NCBI RefSeq assembly: GCF_947581915.1
Contig: NZ_CANPWG010000065.1
Span: forward strand, 161,181 to 225,180
Reading direction: 5' to 3'
Length of the DNA stretch: 64,000 bases
Source: Candidatus Palauibacter scopulicola
GTDB lineage: Bacteria; Gemmatimonadota; Gemmatimonadetes; Palauibacterales; Palauibacteraceae
In this document: positions 31,615 to 61,731 of the stretch, piece by piece
How positions within the stretch are numbered: position 1 is the stretch's first letter
How the letters are laid out: every line of letters begins with the position of its first letter
Program-made: the position numbers and the translations under genes
The notes under the pieces: model-generated
Told to the model about the DNA's origin: nothing
Databases searched by the model: none
The model's input: only the letters and a program-made list of their open reading frames with translations

Positions 31615-31868
31615 ACGACGCTACAACGGGGAGCCGTTTCCCGTGCGTGGCGGGGAGGCGGCGAGCGGCGCGTCGTCGCCGATGGAGGTCCTCCAAACGT
31701 TGTTCTGGCGGAAGCTCGCCGGACCCGAACGGGCGGAGCGGCGTCCGCTTGCCGTGCACCACCCGCGAGCGGACCTTGCCGGGAAGCACCGAACCGCCGG
31801 GGTGCCGGCGGCTCCCGGTCGGCGAACGGTCGCGGGCCGCACAGGGTTGGGCATCAGAGGAGCGGATC

Positions 31869-33005
31869 ATGCGGAGACGTAGCTGGACACGGATTGGGGC
31901 GCTGGCGATCGTCGCCGGGTGTGGCGGTTCGAACGGGACGGGGCCGGATAACCCGGGCGTCGTCACGCCCGACCGCTCGGAATTCGCCGTTCTCAACTCC
32001 ATCTCCGGGACCCTGCAGCAGTTCAACCGGATCGGCGGCGCGCTCGTCCCCTTCGGGCGTGACATTCAGCTTGGGGCGGGGTTCAGGGGCGAGACGGCGG
32101 ATTTCATCCAGGATCTCTGGGTGACGGCGTGGGACGCTCCGGAGGGGAGCCAGGTCCTCTTCGGTTCCTTCTCCACCGACGAACGGACGACGGCCGTCTT
32201 TCCGAACAACGCCATCGTGGACCCCGGTAAGCCCACCGTGATCTTCGATGCGGGCGGTACGGTGGGCGCGCTCATTCCCGCCCGGGCGCTGGACGAGGTG
32301 TACGTGGCCTTCCCGGGCACTCCGATGGCGCAGATCGCCGTCGAGGCGGTGGGCACCTTCGTGGAGCGAGTGATCCCGGCCGGGCAGTTCCTCGTCTCCG
32401 CCGACGGCAACCTCGACGACGCGGACGGCGGACGCGAACCCCTCGGCCCGCCCCGCATCGTCCTCCACGAGTTCATCAGCGGCAGCTACTTCGACGAGCT
32501 GAGGCTTCCGGAAGGCACGGTCGGGGTCACCGAAGCCATAGTGCTCGAAGACAACATGCTCCTGCTGGCCGGCGGGGGAGTCGATCCGGCGACCTCCGCC
32601 GGGCTGGGGGACGGGAATCTCGTCGAGATCGACATGTCGGCCCGGAGCGTGCAGGACGTGAACGCCCTCGGCGGAAACGGACTCTCCATGGAGGCCGGGC
32701 GGGACGGGCTCGTCTATGTCGTGCGAACGAAGGGTGTCGACACGGCGGAAACGGACGTGCTGACGTTCAGCTTTGCGGTTCGGTCGTGGATGAACGGGCC
32801 GGAAAACCCGATCCAGCCGCGCGACCGGGACGGCTCGAACCTCAACTGCCGGGTCGCGGCCGGATTCCTTGACGGCCAGATCCTCTGCGCCACCTACGTG
32901 GCCGCGGGCCAGGGACGTCTCGTTCTCCTTTCGGCCGAGGGCGAGTTCATCCACGAGGTGCCGATCGGGGCGGGAACGACCGATATCCTGCTTCGCCCGA
33001 GCTGA
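31869..33005 (+). CDS. hypothetical lipoprotein (secreted, repeat/beta-rich)
   Basis: MRRRSWTRIGALAIVAGCGGS lipoprotein signal at ATG 31869. The 254 nt upstream are in-frame but Arg-rich junk. Confidence 0.5.
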   Translation: MRRRSWTRIGALAIVAGCGGSNGTGPDNPGVVTPDRSEFAVLNSISGTLQQFNRIGGALVPFGRDIQLGAGFRGETADFIQDLWVTAWDAPEGSQVLFGSFSTDERTTAVFPNNAIVDPGKPTVIFDAGGTVGALIPARALDEVYVAFPGTPMAQIAVEAVGTFVERVIPAGQFLVSADGNLDDADGGREPLGPPRIVLHEFISGSYFDELRLPEGTVGVTEAIVLEDNMLLLAGGGVDPATSAGLGDGNLVEIDMSARSVQDVNALGGNGLSMEAGRDGLVYVVRTKGVDTAETDVLTFSFAVRSWMNGPENPIQPRDRDGSNLNCRVAAGFLDGQILCATYVAAGQGRLVLLSAEGEFIHEVPIGAGTTDILLRPS

Positions 33006-33793: not shown

Positions 33794-35704
33794 GTGAGCG
33801 AGGGCGCGAGCGATCGGCGCGGGATCGTGATCGGGACGGCTGGCCACGTGGATCACGGCAAGACCGCCCTCGTGCGGGCGTTGACGGGGATCGAGACGGA
33901 TCGCTGGCTGGAGGAGCAAAAGCGGGGGCTCACGATAGACCTGGGCTTCGCGCGGCTCGACCTCGACCCCGGCCTGGAGACGGGAGTCGTCGACGTCCCG
34001 GGACACGAGGATTTTCTCAAGAACATGCTCGCCGGGGCCACGGGCATCGATGTCCTCCTCCTGGTCGTGGCGGCCGACGAGGGCCCGATGCCTCAGACGC
34101 ACGAGCACCTCGCGATCGCGCGTCTTCTGAACGTCCGGCGCGGGGTCGTCGCGCTCACGAAGCGGGACCGGGTCGATGAGGACTGGCTCGAACTCGCGAG
34201 CGAAACGACCCGGGAACTGCTGGACGAAGACCCCGCCCGGGCGTCGTGGGAGATCGTACCGGTCTCCGCCCTGACGGGCGAAGGGATCGAACCGCTGCGA
34301 GCCGCGCTGCGCAGGTCGACCGCGGAAATCCGCGCGCGCAGCGTCGAAGACCGCTTTCGGCTCCCGGTCGACCGGTCCTTCTCCATCCGGGGCACGGGTA
34401 CCGTGGTGACCGGCACGGTATGGAGCGGATCCGTCGGCGTGGGCGACACCGTGCGCATCTTCCCGGGGGGCGGCTCGGCCCGCGTGCGCGCGCTCCAGGT
34501 GCATGAAGACCCGCGTCGCCGCGTCGCCGCCGGCCGCCGGTGCGCCGTCGCGCTCGTCGGCGTTGCGCCGGCTGCGGTGGCGCGGGGCAGCGTGCTGGTG
34601 GATCCGTCCGAGTGGGGGTCGAGCGAGCGTCTCGGCGTCCGTGTACGGGCGCTCGGGAGCCGCGACCGGCCCCTCCGGCACGGACAGCGCCTGAGGGTCT
34701 ACCTCGGCACCCGCGAGGTCATGGCCCGACTGCAGACGGCCGATCGCCAGCCCGTCGCGCCCGGAGCGACCGCCTGGGCCGTGCTGGCCCTCGAGGCGCC
34801 GCTCCTCGCCCGGACCCGCGATCGGGCCATCCTCCGCTTTTATTCGCCGGTGACGACGATCGGCGGGATCCGCGTGGCGGAACTGAACCCGCCGCCCGAC
34901 TGGCCGGCGCGGACGGGAGCCTGGCGGCGCATTCTCGACGGCGCCCCGGCGGAAGCGATCGCCGCCGCCGTCGCCCTGGAGGGCCTGCGCGGGCTTCCCG
35001 TCGCGACATCATCGATCCTCCTCGGCCGGCGCGCCCCCACGCTCGAGACGGCCGCGGAGGAGGCCGGCTGCGTGCACATCGGCGACCGCTGGTTCGCCGC
35101 CGACGCCGTGACCGAGGCCATGGAAGCCGTGGAGCAGAGCGTGACCCGTCTCCACGCCGCGGATCGCCGCGCCCCCGGCGTGTCGAAAGAGGCCGTGCGC
35201 TCCGCGATGGCGCCGTTCTGCGACCTCGAACTGGCGGAGACCGCCGTACGTCGCCTCCTCGCCGGTCGTGGCCTCCTTGAGAGCGGGCCGCGGCTGGCTC
35301 TTCCGGGCCATGCCCCCCGCCTCACCGCGCAGGAGGAGGAGGGGCGCGCGCAACTCGCCGGGACGATAGAAGCCGCCGGTCTGCAGCCACCGCTCGTCAC
35401 GGAGTTGGGGAAGAAGCTGCGCCTGGACCGCGCCGTGCTCGACGACCTCCTCCGGCTGTTGCAGGAGTCCGGCCTGACGAAGGCGGTCACGCCCGAGCTG
35501 CACGTCGCCGTCGGGGCACTGGAGACGATGGAGGCGCGAGTGCGAGAGCTTCTCGCCGATGCCGCGCCGGTCCCTCCCGCGCGGTTCAAGGAGACGTTCG
35601 GGCTCTCCCGGAAGTACCTGATCCCGCTCCTCGAGTACCTGGACCGGGAGGGCGTGACGCGGCGAACCGCGAAAGGGAGGGTCCTCGCCCGCCCCGCCGA
35701 CTAG
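33794..35704 (+). CDS. selB: selenocysteine-specific translation elongation factor SelB
   Basis: EF-Tu-like GTPase ([31 protein letters not shown]-like TKRD) followed by ~300 aa of winged-helix C-terminal extension; 636 aa. Confidence 0.9.
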
Positions 35705-36733: not shown

Positions 36734-37101
36734 GGGGGCGACACGGCTTCGACGCGTGAACCGGAAGCCGCGGAAGCGTGCCGAGGTGCCCGGGGCCTCG
36801 TTAAACACCGGGAAATCTTCAGGTGCCAACAACGGTTTGGCTCTGGCTGCGTAAATCTGCGTAGCCCGTCCCCGAGAGATCCGGGCCCGAGGACCTCCCG
36901 GCGGACGTCGATGAATCGGGCTGGTCGCCCCGGCGCGCCGTGAGCCGCGGGTGACGAGAGCACGGCGAGAGCCGCGTACACGGCTGGTTTCGCAAGGGGT
37001 TGTTCGTGAACCCTCGCGGGATGAGACCTGATCACGGACTACGCACGTAGATGCCGTGGCGGATGGGCTCGCGGACGCGGGTTCGATTCCCGCCGCCTCC
37101 A
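36734..37101 (+). ncRNA. ssrA: tmRNA (transfer-messenger RNA, SsrA)
   Basis: 5' GGGGGCGACACGGCUUCGACG..., 3' T-arm GCGGGUUCGAUUCCCGC, with the acceptor 3' strand CGCCUCC pairing to the 5' GGGGGCG and discriminator A. There is an internal tag ORF ...GCC AAC AAC GGT TTG GCT CTG GCT GCG TAA (ANNGLALAA*) at 36825-36854. Length 368 nt; CCA is not encoded. Confidence 0.85.
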
Positions 37102-37132
37102 CTATTGCGATCGGTGCAGTGCTCCGCCCGGG

Positions 37133-40350: not shown

Positions 40351-40617
40351 GCGGAGTGCGGCATCGCGGGCGAGTCTTGCGGCGGAACGGCGAGCCGAGC
40401 CGTTGGGCACGATCTTTGGCGCTCTCCGGGGGATCGAAGTATGTTCGCCCGACCGCCAGAACGCGTTCGAACGCAACGACTCGCCTCCAGCGATGAGGCG
40501 TACGGGCGAGGTTACCGGCTCCCACCGATCCGATGCAAGGCAACGGCGACCCACGGGCACGCCGCGTCCTGCCCGGTGGCGGCGGCCGGTCGCCCGCCCC
40601 CGAAAGGAGCCTCGAGC

Positions 40618-41007
40618 ATGCAGACCGGACCGGTCCACACCGACCATGCACCCGCCGCCGTCGGCCCCTACTCCCAGGGGTACTGGGCCGGCGAGCTGTT
40701 CTACTCCGCAGGGCAGGTGGGGCTGGTTCCGTCCAGCGGCGAGCTGGTGGGGCCCGACGTCGTATCCCAGGCGGAGCGCGTGATGACGAACCTCGCGGCC
40801 GTGCTGGACGAGGCGGGGCTCGCCTTCGGAGATGTCGTGAAGACGACGATCTTCCTCGCGGACATGGGCGATTTCGGTGCCGTGAACGAGGTCTACGCCC
40901 GCCATTTCGAGCCCCCGTTTCCCGCGCGCTCGACGGTCGCCGTGGGTGCGCTGCCCCTGGGGGCCCGGGTCGAGATCGAGGTGATCGGGCGCGCCCGATC
41001 GGGGTGA
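40618..41007 (+). CDS. ridA: RidA/YjgF-family reactive-intermediate deaminase
   Basis: 129 aa with AVGPYSQG...AGQVGL...TTIFLADM...PARSTVAVGALP, the canonical RidA pattern. Confidence 0.85.
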   Translation: MQTGPVHTDHAPAAVGPYSQGYWAGELFYSAGQVGLVPSSGELVGPDVVSQAERVMTNLAAVLDEAGLAFGDVVKTTIFLADMGDFGAVNEVYARHFEPPFPARSTVAVGALPLGARVEIEVIGRARSG

Positions 41008-41045
41008 GATCGGTCGGACCGGAACGACGAACGATGCGGATGACC

Positions 41046-41141
41046 GGGAGCGGATGGTGACTGGTGTCGCCTGCGGTCTTCAAAACCGTTACGGGGCGTT
41101 CGCGCGTCCCGGGTGGGTTCGATTCCCACACGTTCCCGCCA
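41046..41141 (+). tRNA. selC: tRNA-Sec (selenocysteine tRNA, anticodon UCA)
   Basis: Manual fold: anticodon arm GCGGU/CUUCAAA/ACCGU with anticodon UCA (41080-41082); 6-bp D stem GGUGAC/GUCGCC with a 4-nt loop; a long extra arm (~41090-41112); T arm GUGGG-UUCGAUU-CCCAC; acceptor GGGAGCGG/ACGUUCCC, discriminator G and encoded CCA. The 6-bp D stem, long variable arm and G73-CCA are selC hallmarks. selB lies 5.3 kb upstream. Confidence 0.8.
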
Positions 41142-41292
41142 TTTTCGTCCTCGCGGCCCTTCTGACCGGCCAGGGCCTGGACCCCTCGCCGCTGTGCGGG
41201 CAGGATCCTCCGCCTCCCGCGGCCGCACCCGATTCCGCCGCGGCGGAATCGAGCCCCGCCGCCGACACGACGGGGGTCCGGCGCCCGCCCAT

Positions 41293-41650
41293 CTCCCCGC
41301 TTGGCGCCTTCGGCCGCTCCCTGATCCTTCCGGGCTGGGGACAACTGGAGGTCGGGCGCCCGGCCCGCGGCGCCTTCTACTTCGCCGCGGAGTCCGTCTT
41401 CCTGTTCATGGTCTTCAAGTCGGACGCGCGCCTCTCGGCGGCGAAGGAGGAGTTGCCGCCGAACGAAGAGCGGATATCCAACCGCACGGGGCAGCGGGAG
41501 AACTGGATCGTCCTCGCCGGATTCTTCGCCTTTCTGAGCGGTCTTGACGCCTGGGTGTCCACGCAGTTCTGGGACTTCGAGCCCTCGATCGGCCCGCCCG
41601 CCGATGGGTCTGTCGGGATCGCCCTCGGCTTCAAGGTCGATTTCCCCTAG
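41293..41650 (+). CDS. hypothetical membrane/secreted protein with LPGWGQ motif (DUF5683-like); start uncertain
   Basis: The C-terminal body (SLILPGWGQ...FYFAAESVFLFMVFKSD...) looks genuine. The ORF-track ATG at 41054 lies entirely on top of the tRNA-Sec gene, so the start is placed at TTG 41293; it could be elsewhere. Confidence 0.35.
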
Positions 41651-41657
41651 GCAGAGC

Positions 41658-42401
41658 TCAGCCTGCGCCGGGTCCCTGGTACGATTCGAGGCGGATCTCG
41701 TCCGGTGTCACGACGGCGAAGCTGTTGTGATGGAGCCAGTCACCCGAGTTGAGGTAGAACCTCCCCGGTGCGAGTTCGGTGACCTCCGGCCGGTGCGAGT
41801 GTCCGAACACGACGAGGTCCACATCCTCGTGAGCGGTCAGCACCTCGACCGCGTGCCGCGCGAGGAGCGACGCCCGGGGCGACTCGCTCCTCGCCCCCCC
41901 CGCCTGCGCCCGCCGTGTACCGCTGGCGAGCCGCGCGAGGGGGACCCCGAGGTCGGGGTGGACCCAGCGAAAGAGCCCGCGTGCCAACGGACTGCGGGCG
42001 GCCCGGCGCAGGACCCGGTAACCCCGGTCCGCGGGGCCGAGTCCATCGCCGTGCGCGATGTACGCCCGCCGCCCGGCGATGCGTCGCAGCGCCGGCTCTT
42101 CGAGGATTTCGACCCCGACCTCGTCACGGAGGAAGCTCCCCCCCCACGCGTCGTGGTTCCCGCCCATGAACAGCACCGGCATGCCGCCTTCCACGAGGTT
42201 CCGCAAGCGGGCGAGCACGTCGAGCTGCCCGCGCGGGATCACCTGCCGGTATTCGAACCAGAAGTCGAACAGGTCGCCGTTGATCAGGAGTTCGTCGCCC
42301 CAGCGCTTCGCCTCCTCGAGGAAGGCAAGAAACGCGCGCGCGTTCTCCTCGGCGACGGCCCCGAGGTGGATGTCGGACACGACGACGGTGCGTTCGGGCA
42401 T
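41658..42401 (-). CDS. metallophosphoesterase, UDP-2,3-diacylglucosamine hydrolase (LpxH)-like
   Basis: VVSDIHLG...NGDLFDFW...GGNHD...GHSH calcineurin-like motifs. Confidence 0.75.
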   Translation of the reverse strand: MPERTVVVSDIHLGAVAEENARAFLAFLEEAKRWGDELLINGDLFDFWFEYRQVIPRGQLDVLARLRNLVEGGMPVLFMGGNHDAWGGSFLRDEVGVEILEEPALRRIAGRRAYIAHGDGLGPADRGYRVLRRAARSPLARGLFRWVHPDLGVPLARLASGTRRAQAGGARSESPRASLLARHAVEVLTAHEDVDLVVFGHSHRPEVTELAPGRFYLNSGDWLHHNSFAVVTPDEIRLESYQGPGAG

Positions 42402-42485
42402 GGGGCCGAAGCTCGGCGCGCCGGGCGCGGCACGTCAAACGGTGAAAGTTCGACACCCGGTGCGTCGCGGGAGCATATTGCGGGC

Positions 42486-42929
42486 ATGGAAGGCGCAAAC
42501 GGAGTCGGAACGACGGAAGTACGCGTACGGTATGCCGAGACCGACCAGATGGGGCGTGCGCACCACCGCCACTACCTCGTCTGGTGCGAACTCGGACGCA
42601 CGACGCTCATGCGCGAGCGCGGCGTGTCGTACGCGGAACTCGAGCGCGGAGGCCTCTGGCTCCCGGTGTCCCGGGTCGAGGTCGAATACCGGATCCCGGT
42701 CGAGTACGACGAACTCATCCGCATCCACACCCGGGTGGAACGCGTCCGCAGCCGCGAGGTCGTGTTCGCCTACCGGATCGCGCGCGCCTCCGACGACGCG
42801 ACGCTCGCCCGCGCCCGCACGGCCCTCGTGTGCACCGATGCGCGGGGCCGTCCGCACCGCTTTCCGGAGGCCGTGAGGCGGCAACTGCAGACTCTGCCGG
42901 CCGTCGCCGCCCCGCCGACCGCCACATGA
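42486..42929 (+). CDS. acyl-CoA thioesterase (4HBT / YbgC-like hotdog fold)
   Basis: VRVRYAETDQMGRAHHRHYLVWCELGRT..., the 4HBT pattern; 147 aa from ATG 42486. Confidence 0.8.
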   Translation: MEGANGVGTTEVRVRYAETDQMGRAHHRHYLVWCELGRTTLMRERGVSYAELERGGLWLPVSRVEVEYRIPVEYDELIRIHTRVERVRSREVVFAYRIARASDDATLARARTALVCTDARGRPHRFPEAVRRQLQTLPAVAAPPTAT

Positions 42930-44102: not shown

Positions 44103-44265
44103 ACTGACCGGCGTCGATCGCCGGGACGGGATCGGGCGGGAGCCTCTCGCGCCCGCGCGACCGGTTCGCCATTCTGTGGTCGACTTGTTTACACGGGCCG
44201 ATAACCTTCACTCAACGTCCGGGCGCCGACATGCCGCCAGCCGCTCGACCCGCCACCCCGAATCC

Positions 44266-44745
44266 GTGACGTACGCCGTCGGCCTCGTCGCCATCCTGGC
44301 GGCCGTATGGCTCATCTGGTCGGGGCACTTCGAAAACCCGGTCATTCTAAGTCTGGGGGCGGTGTCCATCGGGCTCGTCGTCTTCATCTCGCTCCGCATG
44401 AGGATTGTCGATGACGAGGGGGCACCGATCCAGCTCCCGCTGGGGCTGGTCCGCTATCTGCCCTGGCTGGTGATCGAGATCGTGAAGGCGAATGTCGCCG
44501 TAGCCCTGCGCATCGTGAGCCCCGGGCTGCCGATCCAGCCCCGCGTGATACGGGTGCGGGCCGGGCAGCGCACGGACATCGGTCGGGTCATCTACGCGAA
44601 CTCGATCACGCTCACGCCCGGCACCGTGACGGTCGACACGGAAGGCGATCACATCACGGTCCACGCCCTCACCCGCGAGGCGGCGGAAGGCGTGCTCTCG
44701 GGCGAGATGGACCGGCGGGTGGCGCGGGTCGAGGGGCGCGGATGA
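44266..44745 (+). CDS. mrpE: Mrp-type cation/proton antiporter subunit E
   Basis: MnhE-like, ~159 aa (LVAILAAVWLIWSG... ANSITLTPGTVTVD). Start at GTG 44266. Confidence 0.8.
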   Translation: MTYAVGLVAILAAVWLIWSGHFENPVILSLGAVSIGLVVFISLRMRIVDDEGAPIQLPLGLVRYLPWLVIEIVKANVAVALRIVSPGLPIQPRVIRVRAGQRTDIGRVIYANSITLTPGTVTVDTEGDHITVHALTREAAEGVLSGEMDRRVARVEGRG

Positions 44746-45023
44746 CCCTCGCCGCCGTGGTCGCCGCGATCATCGTCACGATGGGACTCGCTCTCGTCCG
44801 GGCCGCGAAGGGTCCCACGGTCTTCGACCGCATCCTCGCGCTGAACATGTTCGGGACGAAGACCGTGCTGCTGATCGCGGTCATCGGATTCGTGACGGGC
44901 CGGCCGGATTTTCTCGACCTCGGACTCGTCTACGCCCTCATCAACTTCATCGGCGTCATCGCGGTGCTCAGATTCTCGAAGTACGGCAATTTCGCGGACC
45001 CGGACCGGGAGAAGGCGACGTGA
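44742..45023 (+). CDS. mrpF: Mrp-type antiporter subunit F
   Basis: 93-aa three-TM protein (FDRILALNMFGTKTVLLIAV), MnhF-like; ATGA coupling. Confidence 0.8.
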   Translation: MTLAAVVAAIIVTMGLALVRAAKGPTVFDRILALNMFGTKTVLLIAVIGFVTGRPDFLDLGLVYALINFIGVIAVLRFSKYGNFADPDREKAT

Positions 45024-45343
45024 TGCCGGAGTCCGCGTTCGAGATCGTGAGCGCCGTGCTCATGCTGACGGGCGCCCTCTTCGCCGTCATCGGCGGGATC
45101 GGGGTCGTGCGCCTGCCCGACTTCTTCTGCCGCATCCACGGGGCCGGGATCACGGACACGCTCGGAGCGGGGCTCATCCTCACCGGGCTCATGTTCCTGT
45201 CGCCCGGGTGGATCGTGACCGCCAAGCTGGTTTCGATTCTCGTCTTCCTCTGGATCACGAGCCCGACATCCACGCACGCACTGGCCAATGCCGCGCTGGA
45301 GACCGGACTCCGACCGTACGTCGACGAGGCGGAGGAGGCGTGA
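45020..45343 (+). CDS. mrpG: Mrp-type antiporter subunit G
   Basis: MnhG signature GGIGVVRLPDFFCRIHGAGITDTLG. Confidence 0.8.
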   Translation: MMPESAFEIVSAVLMLTGALFAVIGGIGVVRLPDFFCRIHGAGITDTLGAGLILTGLMFLSPGWIVTAKLVSILVFLWITSPTSTHALANAALETGLRPYVDEAEEA

Positions 45344-45921
45344 TCGATCCCGTAGCCCTGGAGATCCAGGTTGCGACGGCGCTGCTCCTCACGCTGCTCT
45401 GCGCGACGGCGGTCGCGGTGCTGCGGATGCGCGGGCTGTTCGCGGCCGTGATGTTGATGGGCATTTTCAGCTTCCTCGGCGCCGGCTGGATGCTCCTGCT
45501 GGATGCTCCCGACGTCGCCCTCACCGAGGCCGCCGTCGGCGCCGGGATCTCGACGATTCTCGCGCTCGCCACTCTGGCCCTCACCACGCGCAAGGCCAAG
45601 CGGCCGGTGCGACCCGCGGTGTTGCCGCTGGCCGTGGTGACGATCACGGGCGTCGCGCTCGTGTACGGCACGCTGGACATGCCGCGGTTCGGCGACCCCG
45701 AGGCCCCGGCCAGCAACTATCCGCTGCCCTCGTACGTCGAGCGGACGGACCACGACATCCACATCCCGAACGTCGTCACCGCCGTGCTTGGCAGCTACCG
45801 CGGCTACGACACGCTCGGAGAAACGGTCGTCATCTTCACCGCCGGCATCGCGGTGCTCGTTCTCCTCCGCGGAAGCCGCAAACGCCGGCCCGCGGCGGAC
45901 GGCGGGGAGGACGACGCGTGA
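45340..45921 (+). CDS. MrpA C-terminal-domain-like membrane protein (MnhB-like/DUF4040; MbhD-equivalent)
   Basis: Polytopic ~193-aa protein in the position that the MrpA C-terminal (MrpB-like) domain occupies in Mbh/Mbx-type clusters. GTGA coupling to mrpG. Confidence 0.6.
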   Translation: MIDPVALEIQVATALLLTLLCATAVAVLRMRGLFAAVMLMGIFSFLGAGWMLLLDAPDVALTEAAVGAGISTILALATLALTTRKAKRPVRPAVLPLAVVTITGVALVYGTLDMPRFGDPEAPASNYPLPSYVERTDHDIHIPNVVTAVLGSYRGYDTLGETVVIFTAGIAVLVLLRGSRKRRPAADGGEDDA

Positions 45922-46340
45922 CCGATCACACCATCCTGCGCGTGGTCAGCAAGTTCCTGCTGCCGTATGTCCTCCTCTTCGCCCTGTACGTCCAGTTCCA
46001 CGGCGACTACGGACCGGGCGGAGGGTTCCAGGCCGGCGTCATCTTCGCGGCCGGGTTCGTGCTCTACGGGCTGATCTACGGACTCACGGCCGTGCGCCGC
46101 GTGGCGCCGGAGCGAGTGATCGAAATCCTGATCGCGGTCGGCGTGCTCATCTTCGCCGGCACGGGCGTTCTTACGATGCTTCGGGGCGGCAACTTCCTCG
46201 AGTACGGCGTCCTGACGCCGGCGTATCCGTCGTCGGGACAGCACTACGGGATCCTCGTCGTCGAACTCGGCGTCGGAGTGACGGTCGCCGCGGTGATCAT
46301 CGCGATCTATTCGACCTTCGCGGGACGCGGGCGCCAGTGA
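45918..46340 (+). CDS. mrpB: Mrp-type antiporter subunit B
   Basis: MnhB-like (YVQFHGDYGPGGGFQAGVIFAAGFVLYGL); 140 aa. Confidence 0.75.
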   Translation: MTDHTILRVVSKFLLPYVLLFALYVQFHGDYGPGGGFQAGVIFAAGFVLYGLIYGLTAVRRVAPERVIEILIAVGVLIFAGTGVLTMLRGGNFLEYGVLTPAYPSSGQHYGILVVELGVGVTVAAVIIAIYSTFAGRGRQ

Positions 46341-46708
46341 TCGAGTCCATCTTCGACTCCGCGCTCGGACTGTACAACTACTGGGTCGTCATCTTCCTGA
46401 TGATGACGGGGTTCTACATCGTCATCTCGCGCGGGAACCTCATCAAGAAGGTCATCGGACTCAACATCTTCCAGGTCTCGGTCTTCCTCTTCTACATCAC
46501 CGTCGGAAAGGTCAGCGGAGGCACGGCACCGATCACGGCCGAGGGGTTCGAGGTCTACAGCAACCCGCTCCCCAGCGTCCTCATCCTGACCGCGATCGTC
46601 GTGGGCGTCGCGACGACCTCCGTCGCCCTCTCGCTCGTCGTCCGCATCCGTGAAGCGTACGAGACGATCGAGGAGGACGAGATCTACGCGCAGGACGACC
46701 CCCGATGA
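46337..46708 (+). CDS. mrpC: Mrp-type antiporter subunit C (NuoK-like)
   Basis: NuoK/MnhC-like three-TM protein (VIGLNIFQVSVFLFYITVG); 123 aa. Confidence 0.8.
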   Translation: MIESIFDSALGLYNYWVVIFLMMTGFYIVISRGNLIKKVIGLNIFQVSVFLFYITVGKVSGGTAPITAEGFEVYSNPLPSVLILTAIVVGVATTSVALSLVVRIREAYETIEEDEIYAQDDPR

Positions 46709-48204
46709 ACTGGCTGACCTCGGCGGTCGGAGATCAACTGCCGGTCCTGCAGGTCGTCATTCCGCTCCTGGCGGCGCCGCTCTGCATCATCCTGCGGCGG
46801 CGCTCCCTGGTGCTGCCCTTCGCGATCATCGTGTGCTGGGCCGCGTTCGGCGTCTCCGTCGCGTTGCTCCAGGAGGTGCTCGAGGTCGGCGCCATCACCT
46901 ACGAACTGGGGGGCTGGGCCGCGCCGTGGGGCATCGAGTATCGCGTCGACGCCCTCGGCGCCTTCGTGCTTCTCTTCGTGTCGGGAATCGGCGCGCTCGT
47001 GCTGACCTATGCGCCGCGCAGTCTGATCGATGAGGTTCCCGCCGGCCGGCAATACCTCTTCTGCACGCTCTACCTGCTCTCCCTCACCGGCCTGCTCGGA
47101 ATCGCGATTACCGGCGACCTCTTCAACGTCTTCGTCTTCCTCGAGATTGCGGCGCTCTCCTCGTACGCCCTGATCGCGCTCGGAGGGCGCAGGCAGGCGC
47201 TGCCCGCGGCGTTCCAGTACCTGGTCATGGGTACGATCGGGGCCACGTTCATCCTCATCGGCATCGGTCTCATGTACCAGATGACCGGGACGCTGAACAT
47301 GGTCGACATGGCCGACCGGCTGCCCGCCGTCGAGGGCATGCGGACGGCGCTCGTCGCCTTCGGCTTCCTCACCGTGGGCATTGCCCTGAAGATGGCGCTC
47401 TTCCCGCTCCACGTCTGGCTGCCCAACGCCTACGCGTACGCGCCGTCCGTCGTCAGCGCCTTTATCGCGGCGACCTCGACCAAGGTCTCCGTCTACATCC
47501 TGCTGCGCTTCATGTTCAGCGTGTTCGGGCTCGAATTCTCGTTCGAGCACCTCGGGCTGGGGCGCGCGCTCATGCCGCTCGCCCTGGCCGGGATCTTCGT
47601 GGCCTCCACGGTCGCGATCTTTCAGCGCAACATTAAGCGGATGCTCGCCTATTCGTCGGTGGCCCAGGTCGGATACATGGTCCTGGGAATCAGCTTCGCG
47701 ACGGCGACCGGGCTCACCGGGGGCATCGTCCACCTGTTCAACCACGCGCTCATCAAGGGCGGGCTCTTCATGGCCATGGGGTGCATCATGCTGCGGCTGC
47801 ACTCCGTCGACCTCGATGACATGGCCGGGATCGGACGCGCGATGCCGTGGACGATGGCCGCGTGGGCGCTCGGTGGCCTCGGCCTCATCGGGGTCCCGGC
47901 GACGGCGGGCTTCATCAGCAAGTGGTACCTCATCGAGGCGGCGTTGGAGCAGGGCAGCGTCCTCGTCGCGGTCCTCCTGCTCCTCAGTTCGCTGCTGGCC
48001 CTCGTCTACGTGTGGCGCGTGGTCGAGACCGCCTTCTTCCACGAACCGAGCGAGCGGGCGCGCGAGGCGCGCGAGGCGCCGCTTTCGATGCTGGTCCCGA
48101 CGTGGGTGCTGCTCGGCGCGACGGTCTTTTTCGGCATCTACACGGCGTACTCGGCGGGCGTGGCGGAGCAGGCGGCGGAGGCCGTGCTCGGCGGGCTCCG
48201 GTGA
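46705..48204 (+). CDS. mrpD: Mrp-type antiporter subunit D (NuoN/M-like)
   Basis: Proton-pumping NuoL/M/N family motifs (LFNVFVFLEIAALSSYALI, HLFNHALIKGGLFMAMG); 499 aa. Confidence 0.85.
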   Translation: MNWLTSAVGDQLPVLQVVIPLLAAPLCIILRRRSLVLPFAIIVCWAAFGVSVALLQEVLEVGAITYELGGWAAPWGIEYRVDALGAFVLLFVSGIGALVLTYAPRSLIDEVPAGRQYLFCTLYLLSLTGLLGIAITGDLFNVFVFLEIAALSSYALIALGGRRQALPAAFQYLVMGTIGATFILIGIGLMYQMTGTLNMVDMADRLPAVEGMRTALVAFGFLTVGIALKMALFPLHVWLPNAYAYAPSVVSAFIAATSTKVSVYILLRFMFSVFGLEFSFEHLGLGRALMPLALAGIFVASTVAIFQRNIKRMLAYSSVAQVGYMVLGISFATATGLTGGIVHLFNHALIKGGLFMAMGCIMLRLHSVDLDDMAGIGRAMPWTMAAWALGGLGLIGVPATAGFISKWYLIEAALEQGSVLVAVLLLLSSLLALVYVWRVVETAFFHEPSERAREAREAPLSMLVPTWVLLGATVFFGIYTAYSAGVAEQAAEAVLGGLR

Positions 48205-49667
48205 GCGGCATGGTGCCGCTGTACTGGGCGCTGGCGATCCCGCTCGCCGGCGCCGTGCTCATCGCCCTGTTCGGCCGCTGGCCCAACATCCGGGAAGCCG
48301 TCACGCTCGCCACCGGCGCGGCGCTCTTCTGGTTCGTCGCGTCGCTCCTGCCGCACGTCCTTGCCGGCGCGACCCCCGGGGTGCTCATGGTGCGGCTGCT
48401 TCCCGGCGGCCTCTCCCTCGTGCTCCGGCTGGAGCCCCTCGGGATGCTCTTCGCCCTGGTCGCGGCCGGGCTCTGGATCGTCACTTCGCTGTACTCGATC
48501 GGCTACATGCGGGGACACGCGGAGGTGCACCAGACGCGGTTCTACGTCTGTTTCGCGGTCTCCATTTGCGCCGCCATGGGCGTGGCGCTCGCGGGCAACC
48601 TGCTCACGCTGTTCCTCTTCTATGAGGTGCTGACGCTCTCGACCTACCCGCTCGTCTCGCACCACGGGACGCCGAAGGCGATGAAGGGCGCCCGCACGTA
48701 TCTGGGCATCCTCGTCACCACATCCGTCGCGTTTCTGCTCCTCGCGGTCGCGTGGACCTGGGTGCTCGCCGGCACGCTCGACTTCCGCGTCGGGGGGATC
48801 CTGGCCGGCCAGGCGAGCGACGGCGTGCTCCTCGTCCTGCTCGCGCTCTTCGTGTTCGGGACGGGGAAGGCCGCCCTCATGCCGGTCCATCGCTGGCTGC
48901 CCGCCGCCATGGTCGCGCCGACGCCCGTGAGCGCGCTCCTGCACGCGGTCGCGGTCGTGAAGGCCGGCGTGTTCACGATCATGAAGGTCGTCATCTACAT
49001 CTTCGGTCTCGACCTGCTGAGCGCGACCGGGATCAGCGTGTGGCTCATGTACGCCGCCGGCTTCACCGTCATCGCGGGCTCGCTCGTGGCCATGGCGCAG
49101 GACAATCTCAAGCGGCGCCTCGCATATTCCACGGTGAGCCAGCTCTCCTACATCGTCCTCGGGGCGGCGCTCGCGAACGCCTGGGGCGTGGTCGGCGGCA
49201 GCATGCACATCCTCATGCACGCCTTCGGCAAGATCACCCTCTTCTTCTGCGCCGGCGCGATCTACGTCGCGGCGCACAAGACGGAGATCAGCGACATGCG
49301 CGGGCTGGGCCGCGCGATGCCGATCACGATGGCGGCCTTCCTCATCGGGGCCCTCAGCGTCATCGGCGTCCCGCCCCTCGGCGGGAGCTGGAGCAAGTGG
49401 TACCTGGCACTCGGGGCGCTCGACGCCGGGCAGATCCTCTTCGTCGCCGTCCTCATGGTCAGTTCGCTGCTGAACATCGCGTACCTCGTCCCGATCCCCA
49501 TCCGGGCGTTCTTCTCGAAACCCGCCGACGGGTCGGACCCGCCGCGCTTCAAGGAGGCGCCGGCGTTCTGCGTCGCGGCGCTCTCGTTCACGGCGGTCGG
49601 CTGCATCGTCCTCTTTTTCCTCGCGGACGATGTGTACCGCCTGCTCGTCCCCCTGGGCGGAGGGTAA
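48201..49667 (+). CDS. second NuoL/M/N-family antiporter-like subunit (MrpA N-terminal / MrpD paralog)
   Basis: FLFYEVLTLSTYPLV, LHAVAVVKAGVFTIMKV, ILMHAFGKITLFFCAG; ~488 aa. GTGA overlap with mrpD. Confidence 0.8.
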   Translation: MSGMVPLYWALAIPLAGAVLIALFGRWPNIREAVTLATGAALFWFVASLLPHVLAGATPGVLMVRLLPGGLSLVLRLEPLGMLFALVAAGLWIVTSLYSIGYMRGHAEVHQTRFYVCFAVSICAAMGVALAGNLLTLFLFYEVLTLSTYPLVSHHGTPKAMKGARTYLGILVTTSVAFLLLAVAWTWVLAGTLDFRVGGILAGQASDGVLLVLLALFVFGTGKAALMPVHRWLPAAMVAPTPVSALLHAVAVVKAGVFTIMKVVIYIFGLDLLSATGISVWLMYAAGFTVIAGSLVAMAQDNLKRRLAYSTVSQLSYIVLGAALANAWGVVGGSMHILMHAFGKITLFFCAGAIYVAAHKTEISDMRGLGRAMPITMAAFLIGALSVIGVPPLGGSWSKWYLALGALDAGQILFVAVLMVSSLLNIAYLVPIPIRAFFSKPADGSDPPRFKEAPAFCVAALSFTAVGCIVLFFLADDVYRLLVPLGGG

Positions 49668-49670
49668 GCC

Positions 49671-49982
49671 ATGGCCGCTGACACGCACGACACGGGCGGA
49701 CGGACGAAGGACCGGGGCCGGCACTACTTCGACGATCCGAAGCGCTGGAAGCGCCTGATCGCGATCCTGGTCGTGGTGTGCGGCGTGCTGTTCGCGCTCG
49801 ACTTCGTGAATTTCCTGCAGCAGCGAATGGGGTGGTGGGAGTTGCGCCACCCGGAGCGCGACTGGGAGGGCCTGCCGCCCTTCTACGCGGTCTACGGCTT
49901 CCTCGCGTACACGGCGATCGTCTACACCGCCAAGCTGCTCCGGAAGGGCGTAATGCGGGACGAGGACTACTATGATCGGTAG
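49671..49982 (+). CDS. small two-TM membrane protein, hypothetical
   Basis: 103-aa ORF between two antiporter-subunit genes, with a good hydrophobic core (LIAILVVVCGVLFALDFVNFL...FYAVYGFLAYTAIVYTAKLL). Confidence 0.45.
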   Translation: MAADTHDTGGRTKDRGRHYFDDPKRWKRLIAILVVVCGVLFALDFVNFLQQRMGWWELRHPERDWEGLPPFYAVYGFLAYTAIVYTAKLLRKGVMRDEDYYDR

Positions 49983-51714
49983 CCTTCCTCCCGCCGCGAT
50001 CATGATCCTCGGGGCGTTGCTCGTCCCCCTCCTCCGGGGCCGTGCGCGCACGGGCTGGGTCCTCCTCCTGCCCGTCGCGAGCCTCGCCGCCCTTCTCGCG
50101 GTGGGCGAAGGAGAGTTCGGGCAGATCTCGATCTTCTCGTACGAGCTGACGCTCGTCCGGATCGACGGGCTGAGCCGGATCTTCGGGTGGCTCTTCCACA
50201 TCGCGGCCTTCATCGGGCTCATCTTCGCGCGGCGCGGAGGGAGCGCGCTGGAAGATGCCGCGGCGCTGGTCTACGCGGGCGCCGCCATCGGAGCCGTGCA
50301 GGCCGGCGACCTGATCACGCTCTTCGTCTTCTGGGAGCTTCTGGCCCTGAGTTCCGTCTTTCTGGTGTGGGCGCGCGGCACGGAACGTTCCTACCGGGCG
50401 GGGATCCGCTACCTGATCGTGCAGGTCGGCTCCGGGGTCGTCCTCCTGGCCGGCATCATCGCCCACGCGCGGGCCACGGGCTCCGTCGCCTTCGACCACC
50501 TGGGGACGGGGACCCTGGCGACGGGGACGCTGGGGACGAACCTCATCCTCCTCGGAATCGGCATCAAGGCGGCCTTCCCGCTGCTGCACAACTGGCTCAC
50601 GGACGCCTATCCCGAGGCCACCTACAGCGGCGCCGTCTTCCTGAGTGCGTTCACGACCAAGGTCGCCGTTTACGCCCTGGCGCGGGGATACCAGGGCGAG
50701 GAGCTGCTGATCTGGGTCGGCGTTGTCATGACGATGTTCCCGATCTTCTACGCCGTGATCGAGAACGATCTGCGCCGGGTGCTCGGATACAGCATGATCA
50801 ACCAGATCGGCTTCATGGTCTGCGGCGTCGGAATCGGCACCGAGATGGCCGTGAACGGGGCGGTTGCGCACGCCTTCAACGACGTGCTCTTCAAGGGGCT
50901 CCTCTTCATGTCGACGGGGGCGCTGCTCTACCGCGCGGGCACGACGAAGTGCAGCGAGCTGGGCGGACTCTACAAGAGCATGCCGAAGACGGCGGGTTTG
51001 TGCGTCGTCGGCGCCGCCTCCATCTCCGCCTTCCCGCTGTTCAGCGGGTTCGTGAGCAAGTCGATGGTGATGGCGGCGGCGCTGGAGATGAACCTCGACA
51101 TCGTGTGGCTCTTCCTCCTGTTCGCCTCGGCCGGCGTGCTGCACCACGCGGGGATCAAGATCCCGTTCTACGGCTTCTTCGGGCCCGATTCCGGGATCCG
51201 CACGAAGGAGGCGCCGACGAGTATGCTCATCGCGATGGGGATGGCGGCCTTCCTGTGCATCCTCAACGGGTCGTGGCCAACGCTGTTCCTGTATCCGAAC
51301 CTGCCGTACGAGGTGACGTACGTGCCGTTCACCCCCGCGCACGTGATCAGCCAGCTGCAGCTGCTCTTCTTCGCCGTGCTCGCCTTCGTGTGGCTGCGGC
51401 TCACCGACCGGGAACCGCACGAGCTGCCGTCGACGAACCTCGACGCGGACTGGTTCTATCGCCGATTCGGCAGGGGGCTGGCGCTCGCGGCGGGGGGCGT
51501 CTCGTCGCGGCTGCGGGAAGCCGTCGCGGCGCGCACCGTGGTCGCGGCCGGCGACGTGATCGGATCGGCCAGGCGCTACATGGGCCCGAGCGGCGTGTTG
51601 GGGCGTACCTGGCCCACCGGAGTCTCCGTCATATGGGTTGCGATCCTGCTCCTGGTGTTCCTGCTCCTCTACTACGCGACTACGCCCGTCACGAACGCCC
51701 TCCCGCCGCCATGA
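49972..51714 (+). CDS. third NuoL/M/N-family antiporter-like subunit
   Basis: LFVFWELLALSSVFLV, HAFNDVLFKGLLFMSTGALL; 580 aa. Confidence 0.8.
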   Translation: MIGSLPPAAIMILGALLVPLLRGRARTGWVLLLPVASLAALLAVGEGEFGQISIFSYELTLVRIDGLSRIFGWLFHIAAFIGLIFARRGGSALEDAAALVYAGAAIGAVQAGDLITLFVFWELLALSSVFLVWARGTERSYRAGIRYLIVQVGSGVVLLAGIIAHARATGSVAFDHLGTGTLATGTLGTNLILLGIGIKAAFPLLHNWLTDAYPEATYSGAVFLSAFTTKVAVYALARGYQGEELLIWVGVVMTMFPIFYAVIENDLRRVLGYSMINQIGFMVCGVGIGTEMAVNGAVAHAFNDVLFKGLLFMSTGALLYRAGTTKCSELGGLYKSMPKTAGLCVVGAASISAFPLFSGFVSKSMVMAAALEMNLDIVWLFLLFASAGVLHHAGIKIPFYGFFGPDSGIRTKEAPTSMLIAMGMAAFLCILNGSWPTLFLYPNLPYEVTYVPFTPAHVISQLQLLFFAVLAFVWLRLTDREPHELPSTNLDADWFYRRFGRGLALAAGGVSSRLREAVAARTVVAAGDVIGSARRYMGPSGVLGRTWPTGVSVIWVAILLLVFLLLYYATTPVTNALPPP

Positions 51715-58225: not shown

Positions 58226-59134
58226 TTGGAGCTTCCACTCCCCATGAGTTCCGGATTTCGCACCTACCACGAAGTGGACGAACTGCGCTCGGATCTCCCG
58301 GATCAGATCGCGGCCGGGGACGAGCGCGTGTCCGTGCGGCTCGCTTCCGTCGCCCGCGTCATCGCGGTGATGAGCGGCAAGGGCGGGGTGGGGAAGAGCC
58401 TCGTCTCCGCCCTTCTCGCGACCGCCCTCGCCCGGGGGGGGGATCGCGTGGGCCTGGTCGATGCGGACCTCAACGGCCCCAGCGTGCCGCGCCTTCTCGG
58501 CATCGAACCCGAAAGCCTCGCCGAATCCCGGGATGGGTTCGCACCGCCCGCTTCGCGCGCCGGAGTCCGCGTCATGTCGATGGCGTTCCTCACGGAGCCG
58601 GACCGCGCCCTCACGTGGCGCGAGCCCGCCGACGCCGGCTTTGTGTGGCGTGGCGCCCAGGAGCGGGGGGCCCTGCGGGAATTCCTGTCCGATGTCGCGT
58701 GGGGAGAACTGGATGCGCTCCTCGTGGACCTGCCGCCGGGTACCCAGCGGCTCGCCGAACTCCACGCGCTCGTCCCCGGAATCGCCGGCATCGTCGCGGT
58801 CACCATCCCGAGCGCCGCCTCCCGCGACGCGGTGGCGCGTTCGCTCGATCTCGCTCGGAGACGCGGCCTTCCCATCCTGGGACTCGTGGAGAACCTGTCG
58901 GGGGTTCGCTGCGACGCCTGCGGAGAGCTTGCTCCGCTGCACGCCGGTGACGCCGGGGCCGAACTGGCGGGCCGTTTCCGGGTTCCCCTGCTTGCGCGCC
59001 TCCCCTTCGATGCGGCGCTGGGGGCCGCGGCGGACGAGGGACGGCTCGAGGAATGGCTGGCGGGCGGGCGCGGAGCCGCGGAGGCGCTCCGGAAGGTGGT
59101 CGACGTGCTTCACGCGGCGCGCGCGGCGCGATGA
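58226..59134 (+). CDS. apbC: Mrp/NBP35-family Fe-S cluster carrier ATPase (ApbC-like)
   Basis: Deviant Walker A SGKGGVGKS, and a CxxC near the C-terminus (RCDACGE). Confidence 0.9.
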   Translation: MELPLPMSSGFRTYHEVDELRSDLPDQIAAGDERVSVRLASVARVIAVMSGKGGVGKSLVSALLATALARGGDRVGLVDADLNGPSVPRLLGIEPESLAESRDGFAPPASRAGVRVMSMAFLTEPDRALTWREPADAGFVWRGAQERGALREFLSDVAWGELDALLVDLPPGTQRLAELHALVPGIAGIVAVTIPSAASRDAVARSLDLARRRGLPILGLVENLSGVRCDACGELAPLHAGDAGAELAGRFRVPLLARLPFDAALGAAADEGRLEEWLAGGRGAAEALRKVVDVLHAARAAR

Positions 59135-59574
59135 AGTTCCTCTGCGTGGACTGCGACCGGCAGATGGCCTTCGACGAGCGGGCCGTGCCCGGCGACGGCA
59201 CGATGGCCGCCGTCTTCAGGTGTCCCTCCTGCGGGCGGAAGACCGCGATGCTCGCCAACCCCATGGAAACGCAGCTCGTGAGTTCGCTCGGCGTGAAGGT
59301 GGGAGGCCGCACCGTCCCGAACGAGAACTTTGAAGGCATCCGCGCCGGCGTGGAGCAGGCGCGCGACGAAGCCCCGTCCGCACCGCCGTTGACGAACCCC
59401 GGACCCGTGCGCTGGAACGTGGACGCGGTCGAGCGCCTCGGCCACGTGCCCTCCTTCGTGCGGGGGATGGTGAAGAAGATCTACAACGAATACGCCCGGG
59501 AACGCGGGATCGAGGAGATGACGCCCGCCGTCATGGACCGGGCCCGGTCCGATCTCGGCCTGGAAGGCATGTAG
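59131..59574 (+). CDS. zinc-ribbon + PCP_red-domain protein (protochlorophyllide-reductase 57 kDa-subunit C-terminal-like domain)
   Basis: N-terminal CVDCD...CPSCG zinc ribbon. The C-terminal VRWNVDAVERLGHVPSFVRGMVKKIYNEYARERGIEEMT matches the PCP_red consensus (W..EA..RL..IP.FVR......E..A...G...IT). ATGA overlap with apbC. Confidence 0.6.
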   Translation: MKFLCVDCDRQMAFDERAVPGDGTMAAVFRCPSCGRKTAMLANPMETQLVSSLGVKVGGRTVPNENFEGIRAGVEQARDEAPSAPPLTNPGPVRWNVDAVERLGHVPSFVRGMVKKIYNEYARERGIEEMTPAVMDRARSDLGLEGM

Positions 59575-59580
59575 CCGGCG

Positions 59581-59871
59581 GTGACGGATGGCGGCGGAGG
59601 GGTGAGCGATACGCGTGAAGGGGCGGGGGCTCCGGATCCGTCCGTGGAACGGGAGGTCCACGGGCTCCGCGCCGTCATTGACCGCGACCTGTGCGTCGGC
59701 TTCGGGGACTGCATCGAGGAGGCGCCGGAGGCCTTCGATCTCGACGAGGATGGGGTAGCGGTGTTCACCGGCCCGGAGCATGCCTCGCGGAAGCGCTTCA
59801 TCGAGGCGTGCGCGTCCTGTCCGGTCGATGCGATCACCGTCCTGGAAGACGGGATAGAGATCGTTCCGTGA
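59581..59871 (+). CDS. small single-cluster [3Fe-4S]/[4Fe-4S] ferredoxin
   Basis: IDRDLCVGFGDCIEEAPEAF...CASCPVDAI, a CxxGxxxC...C(P) ferredoxin pattern. Confidence 0.7.
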   Translation: MTDGGGGVSDTREGAGAPDPSVEREVHGLRAVIDRDLCVGFGDCIEEAPEAFDLDEDGVAVFTGPEHASRKRFIEACASCPVDAITVLEDGIEIVP

Positions 59872-61519: not shown

Positions 61520-61731
61520 TGCCGTTTGACTTTCCCCGTGGGCAGCCGCACCTTCTTGGCGCATAAGCGGGGTTCCGGACCTTCCGGCGGCCCCGACAAC
61601 CTTGGATCAGCGTCGCCGAATTCCTCGTCCGTGGCCGATTCTCGCGGACTGCGTACATCCGGGCTTCGCAGCCGGGCGAGGCTGGTGCGAGCAGCGTGAA
61701 CCGGCCGCAGCACGCCGTCCAACGGAGCGCC

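Follow-up and report, generated by a model that had tools for sequence, protein, structure and literature searches.

Can a protein-coding sequence begin inside a tRNA gene? The question is raised by a locus of Candidatus Palauibacter scopulicola (Gemmatimonadota), in which selC, the gene for the selenocysteine tRNA (tRNA-Sec) at positions 41046-41141 (+), is overlapped by the predicted start of an open reading frame (ORF) on the same strand. This ORF (41054-41650) encodes a DUF5683-like protein. The analyzed stretch of 64,000 nucleotides (contig NZ_CANPWG010000065.1, positions 161,181 to 225,180) is referred to as the window; its G+C content is about 70%, and its genes were called by third-position G+C and annotated with Pfam and NCBIfam. 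A preliminary description of the window had reported the tRNA and had regarded the N-terminus of the ORF as not real. The analysis presented here finds the tRNA call to be essentially certain and the dismissal of the N-terminus to be probably wrong. On balance, the coding sequence (CDS) of the DUF5683-like gene appears to initiate within selC.

The selenocysteine tRNA gene

ARAGORN reports two RNA genes in the window, a tmRNA and a tRNA-SeC. The latter is placed at exactly 41046-41141 (+), the coordinates given in the preliminary description, with the anticodon tca at tRNA positions 35-37. The Rfam model RF01852 matches positions 41046-41137 over its full length (model positions 1-91 of 91) with 79.7 bits and an E-value of 8.6e-15, which is far above the gathering score of 47. 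The structural features described earlier could all be read directly in the sequence and are shared with canonical selC as represented by RF01852 and E. coli. These are the anticodon loop CUUCAAA with the anticodon UCA, a D stem of 6 bp (GGUGAC/GUCGCC) with a 4-nt loop (UGGU), a long extra arm of about 20 nt (8 bp and a 4-nt loop), a T arm GUGGG/UUCGAUU/CCCAC with a 5-bp stem, the discriminator G and an encoded CCA. The co-occurrence with selB is a further point of agreement. The acceptor stem, previously given as about 8 bp, was confirmed for seven standard pairs; the eighth position was found to be a G8.A mismatch, which is kept in most relatives and replaced by G-C in a few. At the top of the anticodon stem a U.U is present.

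The tRNA-Sec genes gathered from relatives comprise 54 distinct sequences, and RNAalifold was run on 24 diverse ones. The cloverleaf was recovered with 31 pairs, 11 of which show compensatory double changes, located in the variable arm, the T-stem closing pair, the D stem and the anticodon stem. The anticodon loop (UCA), the T loop and the discriminator are invariant across all 54 distinct sequences, and the same was found for GGAUGG at tRNA nucleotides 7-12. Compensatory changes combined with an invariant anticodon loop, T loop and discriminator are the signature of a functional tRNA.

The G8.A mismatch in the acceptor stem and the U.U atop the anticodon stem could be taken as signs that the sequence is a tRNA-derived mRNA leader or a pseudogene instead of a working tRNA. 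It would fit this view that neither selA nor selD was identified by Pfam and NCBIfam annotation within the 64-kb window, nor in the 7.5 kb past its 3′ end. Such a degenerate origin is nevertheless barely credible, given the full-length Rfam match far above threshold, the compensatory changes in every arm, the three elements that are invariant in the 54 distinct sequences and a selB gene that is intact, conserved and syntenic. As judged from these sequence comparisons, 41046-41141 is essentially certain to be a genuine bacterial selC, and it is an ordinary member of the known tRNA-Sec family.

Differences from canonical selC concern the eighth acceptor pair, which is G.A in most of the clade, and the length of the tRNA, which in some lineages is 94 nt (class F, no CCA) or 97-98 nt. 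The partner of position 8 was found to be A, G or C by lineage, and a standard eighth acceptor pair is formed only in some lineages. The variants of 94 nt without encoded CCA or of 97-98 nt occur in L101, L106, L109, L117, L125 and L127 (also L070 and L083), the 97-98-nt forms having longer variable arms or a 7-bp D stem. In addition, selC of the window lies between ridA and an unrelated gene, not beside selA or selB.

The DUF5683-like gene and its candidate start inside selC

In the public gene call on the 470-kb metagenome scaffold (ENA ERZ23496730, ROBB21-1_SAMN13943211_METAG-scaffold_5), the ORF is a 198-aa CDS that starts at 41054. This position is nucleotide 9 of the tRNA, so that the earlier observation of an ORF starting atop the tRNA holds. 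For the comparison with relatives, a set of 28 GTDB loci, 120 protein-cluster representatives and 80 added metagenome loci was used; the available start codons were compared across 88 distinct loci. Reading frames were assigned by homology anchoring; the naive choice of the longest ORF after the tRNA is misleading in high-G+C DNA.

Homologues of the ORF are present in 26 of the 28 GTDB loci. The protein database contained 154 hits, some of them carrying PF18935/DUF5683. The window protein itself scored 15.5 bits against PF18935 (E = 0.017), which is below the gathering score of 26.7, and the match covers the LPGWGQ region only; its relative P0099 reached 26.8 bits. From these matches, the product of 41054-41650 is best called DUF5683-like. 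In the conserved domain, pairwise codon differences amount to 5713 synonymous versus 1839 non-synonymous, and the variable sites at codon positions 1/2/3 number 31/14/97. Hydropathy peaks indicate two hydrophobic helices at about residues 106-122 and 150-168. By this substitution pattern, the ORF is, in its main part, a real and conserved gene under purifying selection.

The coding signal extends up to the tRNA. The hydrophobic core of IFVLAALLTGQGLDPSPLCGQ, the stretch that follows the tRNA, starts with the codon that takes its first base from tRNA nucleotide A76 and has a Kyte-Doolittle mean of 2.87 over its first nine residues. The G+C fractions at codon positions 1/2/3 of this stretch are 0.77/0.45/0.86. 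It is followed by DPPPP and resembles, by inspection, a signal peptide in its hydrophobic core and cleavage region. A motif AQ[ED] is conserved in the relatives 19-28 residues past the tRNA end, and the stretch after the tRNA varies in length by whole codons only. We infer that the DUF5683-like protein is secreted or located in the membrane.

Relative to the tRNA, in-frame start codons in the window are an ATG at +8, a GTG at +11 and the next only at +362. The last corresponds to Met118 and lies inside a conserved hydrophobic helix. Upstream of the tRNA, the frame contains a stop at −64, with no start from there to +8. The duplex of the GGAG in the 5′ acceptor strand with the anti-Shine-Dalgarno sequence was calculated to be −6.6 kcal/mol, a value similar to those of neighbouring genes. 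Among 27 genes nearby, about 60% have GGAG, GAGG or AGGA at −7 to −20. An upstream ORF (uORF) of six codons at 41040-41060 (+), with the sequence atg acc ggg agc gga tgg tga, begins 6 nt ahead of the tRNA. It stops one base past the ATG at 41054, a geometry that is typical of termination-reinitiation coupling. Its motif cggatgacc is conserved only among close Palauibacter relatives.

Among the GTDB loci, 11 different spacer lengths (137-224 nt) were found, and with each of them the domain stays in frame with the ATG inside the tRNA. One of these loci is L034, whose tRNA has a 1-nt insertion in the variable arm and whose spacer correspondingly belongs to the other residue class. Ninety of the 120 protein-cluster representatives start at the tRNA-internal ATG and show two T-arm frames: 56 read ...GWVRFPHVPA (96-nt tRNA) and 34 read ...RVGSTPTRSRH (97-nt tRNA), tRNAs of both lengths being read continuously from this ATG. 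In the metagenome loci, tRNA-Sec was located directly upstream of the ORF wherever enough sequence was available. Canonical start codons are lacking from the interval that separates the tRNA end from the hydrophobic core in 63 of 80 loci. Inside the tRNA, an open in-frame start is available in 85 of the 88 distinct loci, and for 76 loci it is the sole option; the remaining three loci have in-frame starts at −2 or −26. A fixed frame relation between the ORF and the ATG at tRNA nucleotides 9-11 was discarded as a general rule: it held for 26 of the 28 GTDB loci, and several metagenome clades are in other frames.

Three natural controls are available. In a sister clade, the DUF5683-like gene has no upstream tRNA; a DAG-kinase-like gene replaces ridA-selC upstream, and the downstream genes for a metallophosphoesterase (−) and a 4HBT thioesterase (+) are kept as in the window (41658-42929). 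These tRNA-free orthologues show a canonical ATG, K/R, a hydrophobic core and AQ|[ED], forming what looks like a canonical signal peptide of 20-24 residues. This length equals the distance from the tRNA end to AQ[ED] (19-28 residues) in the tRNA-adjacent genes, which indicates that the CCA end of the tRNA sits where a start codon belongs.

A second control is a sister Palauibacter genome, in which the 3′ end of selC has received a mobile element carrying a phage-type integrase and a TerL terminase. This integration is a natural test of the overlap. Upstream of the displaced DUF5683-like gene, 15-22 nt of the tRNA 3′ end remain (..CACACGTTCCCGCCA), and the gene reads through them from a new ATG in the island DNA. 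The protein clusters P0019 and P0025 carry the same integration signature with different island-derived N-termini. As a third control, the two loci in which the +8 frame contains a stop within the tRNA, L048 and L068, belong to the few that possess a good GTG downstream.

Existing annotations of the gene are split between NCBI-type calls (P0024, P0026, P0029, P0030, P0032 and P0035) and Prodigal-type calls (P0001-P0023). The former avoid the tRNA and start at differing internal codons, resulting in proteins of 142-168 aa that have lost the n-region or part of the core. The latter bury selC under a CDS of 191-211 aa.

The dismissal of the N-terminus in the preliminary description is not supported in this form. 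The coding signal and the core of the putative signal peptide abut the tRNA 3′ end, the window has no other in-frame canonical start before codon 118, the calls that avoid the tRNA are inconsistent with one another, and the tRNA-free orthologues place their ATG where the tRNA end lies. Together with the evidence for a real gene, the overlap thus looks biological and not like an artefact of gene calling.

The gap between ridA and the tRNA is short (12-70 nt across the relatives), and a scan of 40400-41800 revealed no promoter-like or terminator-like site. From the short gap and the lack of a terminator-like site in this region, ridA, selC and the ORF are probably co-transcribed, with transcript boundaries that are inferred. 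The reading that we favour, with some reserve, is that translation of the DUF5683-like CDS initiates within selC. The CDS would have lost its own start codon, with its frame running open into the tRNA. In the window, initiation would occur at the AUG of tRNA nucleotides 9-11, with the G-rich acceptor strand GGGAG serving as a weak Shine-Dalgarno sequence, and the first 29 codons, being tRNA sequence, would act as a long, positively charged n-region. Since both the AUG and the GGAG are buried in the folded cloverleaf, initiation would have to precede synthesis of the 3′ acceptor strand or take place on molecules that are not folded. Loading of the 30S subunit would accordingly be limited to the time before the acceptor stem forms, for example during transcription. 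After folding of the cloverleaf, the tRNA would be cut out by RNase P and 3′ processing, and the mRNA would lose its 5′ end. A given transcript would be split between tRNA-Sec and protein, or would pass through one early round of translation and then yield the tRNA. It seems about equally plausible that this arrangement, with the start and the first 10-30 or so codons in selC and the transcript split between tRNA-Sec and translation, does or does not hold throughout the Gemmatimonadota.

Several observations weigh against initiation within selC. The AUG and the GGAG are part of a very stable cloverleaf, the fold of which was recovered computationally; the Shine-Dalgarno spacing of 3 nt is short, and tRNA processing would destroy such an mRNA. 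The start codon would also have to differ by clade, with ATG+8 in classes A and B, GTG+19/+55 in class D and GTG+52/+67 in class E, and some class F loci have no start inside the tRNA. The clades that are out of frame with ATG+8 have tRNAs of 98 nt, in some cases 96 nt, or 94 nt without encoded CCA. Being in frame with ATG+8 is therefore a property of clades and not universal. Of the three reading frames across the tRNA, two are open and each contains chance start codons, so that the availability of a start in the tRNA is weak evidence when taken alone. The truly independent lineages are few (about 5-7 frame classes). A plausible downstream start is present in 10 of the 88 loci. A near-cognate AUH codon (ATC, ATT or ATA) is located exactly at A76 in 27 of 45 class A/D loci (60%), the window included. 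Finally, IFVLAALLTGQGLDPSPLCGQ looks like a signal peptide by inspection and hydropathy only.

The codons at A76 lead to the alternative that the CDS starts with a non-canonical codon at the last base of the tRNA or just after it (AUU in the window, formed by A76 and UU), which would make the 29 codons an artefact. In addition to the 27 loci with ATC, ATT or ATA, this start would be in line with the database protein P0045, which has a Met at the A76 codon, and with the distance from the tRNA end to AQ[ED], which equals the complete signal peptide of the tRNA-free orthologues. Moreover, no excised tRNA would have to be translated through. We nevertheless regard it as unlikely. Codons of this type (AUH) initiate very poorly in bacteria, and the other 18 of the 45 class A/D loci carry ACC, ACT, AAT, AAC or AAG, which are unable to initiate, at this position; class B/E loci carry CAC or CAT. 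With a start at A76, most Palauibacter genes would be left without a charged n-region, and the only Shine-Dalgarno sequence upstream would be tRNA sequence. An ancestral ATG at A76 as the true start was rejected, as no DNA locus has ATG at this codon.

A start upstream of the tRNA would leave the whole tRNA nested in the CDS; it could result from reinitiation, following either ridA or the uORF at 41040-41060, or make use of in-frame start codons ahead of tRNA nucleotide 1. In the window, the stop at −64 and the lack of any start before +8 are at odds with this, notwithstanding the end of the uORF one base past the ATG at 41054. Relatives provide some examples, such as an ATG at −2 straddling tRNA nucleotide 1 (L101), a GTG at −26 (L106), in-frame ATGs at −13 or −22 in several Palauibacter loci and database proteins beginning with MRIDRER... 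or MRNEPDDRER.... These upstream starts are not conserved, however, and the uORF motif is limited to close relatives. Even with the alphaproteobacterial precedent of selC in selB (PMC8124441), an upstream start appears quite improbable. More improbable still is that translation starts at scattered GTG, TTG or ATG codons after the tRNA, as in the NCBI-style annotations, or that the gene is not expressed and the open frame is a by-product of high G+C content. Long open frames are common at 70% G+C, two of three tRNA frames are open and ten loci do have usable downstream starts. The window, in contrast, has its first such codon at position 118 of the CDS, within a conserved hydrophobic helix. The candidates elsewhere shift in position among genomes, and with them the n-region is lost or the hydrophobic core is shortened. 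Every length change after the tRNA comprises whole codons, and the domain is under purifying selection, which would not be expected of a dead gene.

selB and the neighbourhood of selC

The preliminary description had placed selB at 33794-35704, and this assignment is borne out by the equivalog model TIGR00475 (370.8 bits; cut-off 242.25) and by the Pfam domains GTP_EFTU, GTP_EFTU_D2, Beta-barrel_SelB and SelB-wing_3, which include the SelB-specific beta-barrel and winged-helix domains. The gene ends at 35704, 5.3 kb upstream of selC. The presence of selC with selB 5.3 kb upstream implies decoding of UGA as selenocysteine. Judged by these two genes, the use of selenocysteine by Candidatus Palauibacter-like Gemmatimonadota is likely. 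SelB is 88-92% identical to that of Candidatus Palauibacter metagenome-assembled genomes of the Gemmatimonadota. Twenty-eight species-level loci share the gene order selB - tmRNA - greA - mlaDFE - ridA - tRNA-Sec, with SelB identities as low as 52%.

The absence of selA, selD and a TGA-containing selenoprotein gene from the window, also reported previously, was reproduced, and the 7.5 kb that follow the 3′ end of the window contain none of these genes either. A SelD candidate at 17938-18963, the only protein of the AIR-synthase family in the window, was found to be PurM (TIGR00878, 314 bits). A SelA candidate, the 452-aa ORF at 31647-33005 upstream of recO-selB, had no match in Pfam or NCBIfam. 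This ORF (+) is conserved directly upstream of recO-selB, was called as 31869-33005 (378 aa) and has the same position in near-identical contigs. A scan of the window for in-frame TGA codons with a coding signature on both sides revealed no TGA-interrupted gene; its four hits are ordinary gene junctions (metK/BFN, EIIA/EIIB, ribD/ribE and unknown/recO).

The coordinates of all features are listed in Table 1. The tmRNA gene is located between selB and greA in all relatives, and smpB is not adjacent. Extra permuted tmRNA calls of ARAGORN overlap the real tmRNA in L016 (13238-13767), L017 (13221-13549) and L018 (12938-13306). They look false or mis-parsed, and the tag peptide of the L018 call is implausible.

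Downstream of lptE, a cluster for an Mrp/Mbh-type multisubunit cation/proton antiporter was identified at 44176-51714 (+), consisting of MnhE, MrpF, MnhG, MbhD/E, MnhB and three Proton_antipo_M subunits. A gene cluster with PCP_red (protochlorophyllide-reductase 57 kD-like) domains in unusual contexts is located at 59053-63993 (+) in the window and at 8320-14591 in L129. Its products are a protein of 147 aa, a Usp-PCP_red fusion 753-765 aa in length and a radical-SAM/SPASM-PCP_red protein; genes for cytochrome bd-like and multihaem cytochromes come next.

Table 1. Positions of the selC locus features, of neighbouring genes and of elements integrated at selC. Coordinates refer to the window except in the last row, where they refer to the loci named.
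Feature	Coordinates	Strand	Remarks
selC, tRNA-Sec	41046..41141	+	96 nt; anticodon UCA at 41080-41082; CCA encoded; ARAGORN, Rfam and RNAalifold
Shine-Dalgarno-like GGAG, 5′ acceptor strand	41047..41050 (tRNA nt 2-5)	+	3 nt upstream of ATG; sequestered on acceptor pairing
ATG (tRNA nt 9-11) and GTG (tRNA nt 12-14)	41054..41059	+	sole in-frame canonical start codons open to the CDS in the window
DUF5683-like CDS, 198 aa as called	41054..41650	+	codons 1-29 are tRNA sequence
Signal-peptide-like segment IFVLAALLTGQGLDPSPLCGQ	41141..41203	+	inspection and hydropathy
Conserved domain	41288..41647	+	PPISPLGAFGRSLILPGWGQ ... QRENW ... DAWVS.FWDFEP; 25 invariant columns in alignment A1
selB, selenocysteine-specific elongation factor	33794..35704	+	TIGR00475 and Pfam
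tmRNA (ssrA)	36734-37102 or 36734-37104	+	ARAGORN; Rfam RF00023, 147 bits; tag ANNGLALAA
ridA (Rid family deaminase)	40618..41007	+	TIGR00004, 153 bits; stop 38 nt before selC
selC-integrated element loci	L007 17236-17331 and downstream; L044 4608-6049; L045

Known tRNA/CDS overlaps and the meaning of the locus

An overlap of selC with a CDS has been described for selB. In Alphaproteobacteria, selC is nested in or overlaps the selB ORF, and partial overlaps were found in Dyella/Luteibacter and in Nitrospirae (Mukai, 2021, Int J Mol Sci 22:4605, PMC8124441). This overlap is conserved across lineages yet dispensable, with tRNA length classes that keep the frame, and folding and processing of the tRNA versus translation were proposed as alternative fates (PMC8124441). 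The window resembles this case in that tRNA-Sec lies within an ORF of the same strand, is conserved across lineages in this arrangement and would follow the same logic of tRNA or protein. In the case described by Mukai, however, the tRNA forms the 3′ end of selB as a C-terminal extension, with the start codon far upstream. In the window, the tRNA is located at the 5′ end of a non-selenocysteine DUF5683-like gene, to which it apparently gives the start codon and the n-region; selB is a separate gene 5 kb away, and the phylum is different. A 2026 review of prokaryotic selenoproteomes (PMC13188914) mentions the cases of Mukai only, and a Gemmatimonadota overlap is absent from this review and from PMC8124441. 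A literature search, which did not cover all journals, found no report of the overlap seen here and nothing beyond these cases, and comparative papers on Palauibacterales and Gemmatimonadota make no mention of selenocysteine. The overlap in the window is different from the published bacterial case in host gene, position and phylum.

Transcripts shared by tRNAs and CDSs are known from the E. coli operons metY-nusA-infB and thrU-tufB, where the tRNA is co-transcribed with CDSs and excised by RNase P and 3′ processing. In these bacterial tRNA-mRNA operons, tRNA and CDS share no nucleotides, unlike in the window. Mitochondrial tRNA punctuation includes some real tRNA/CDS overlaps, which are ascribed to genome compaction. 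This explanation does not apply to the genomes of 3.6-4.3 Mb considered here. A tRNA-Lys inside cox1 has been described for Armadillidium (as cited in PMC8124441).

The element in the sister genome, with its integrase and terminase at the 3′ end of selC and the remnant as attR, resembles the genomic islands at selC of E. coli. In general, selC serves as an integration site for genomic islands and prophages, for example LEE/PAI-I of E. coli. The window differs from these loci in having no island, and the integration in the sister genome parts the DUF5683-like gene from selC.

For the phylum, selC marks sponge-, coral- and sediment-associated Gemmatimonadota as likely users of selenocysteine, which is of value for annotation. 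The locus also points to a systematic annotation error: pipelines that ban CDS/tRNA overlaps truncate the gene arbitrarily, and tRNA-blind pipelines hide selC under a CDS. The one bacterial precedent in print is selC inside selB, and the overlap extends it to a gene that has no relation to selenium. If translation does start inside selC, one stretch of RNA would be cloverleaf, ribosome-binding site and coding sequence at once, and would offer a simple natural system of processing versus initiation. It would then represent the second known type of bacterial tRNA/CDS overlap, and the first with a translation start and a portion of a signal peptide that come from a tRNA.

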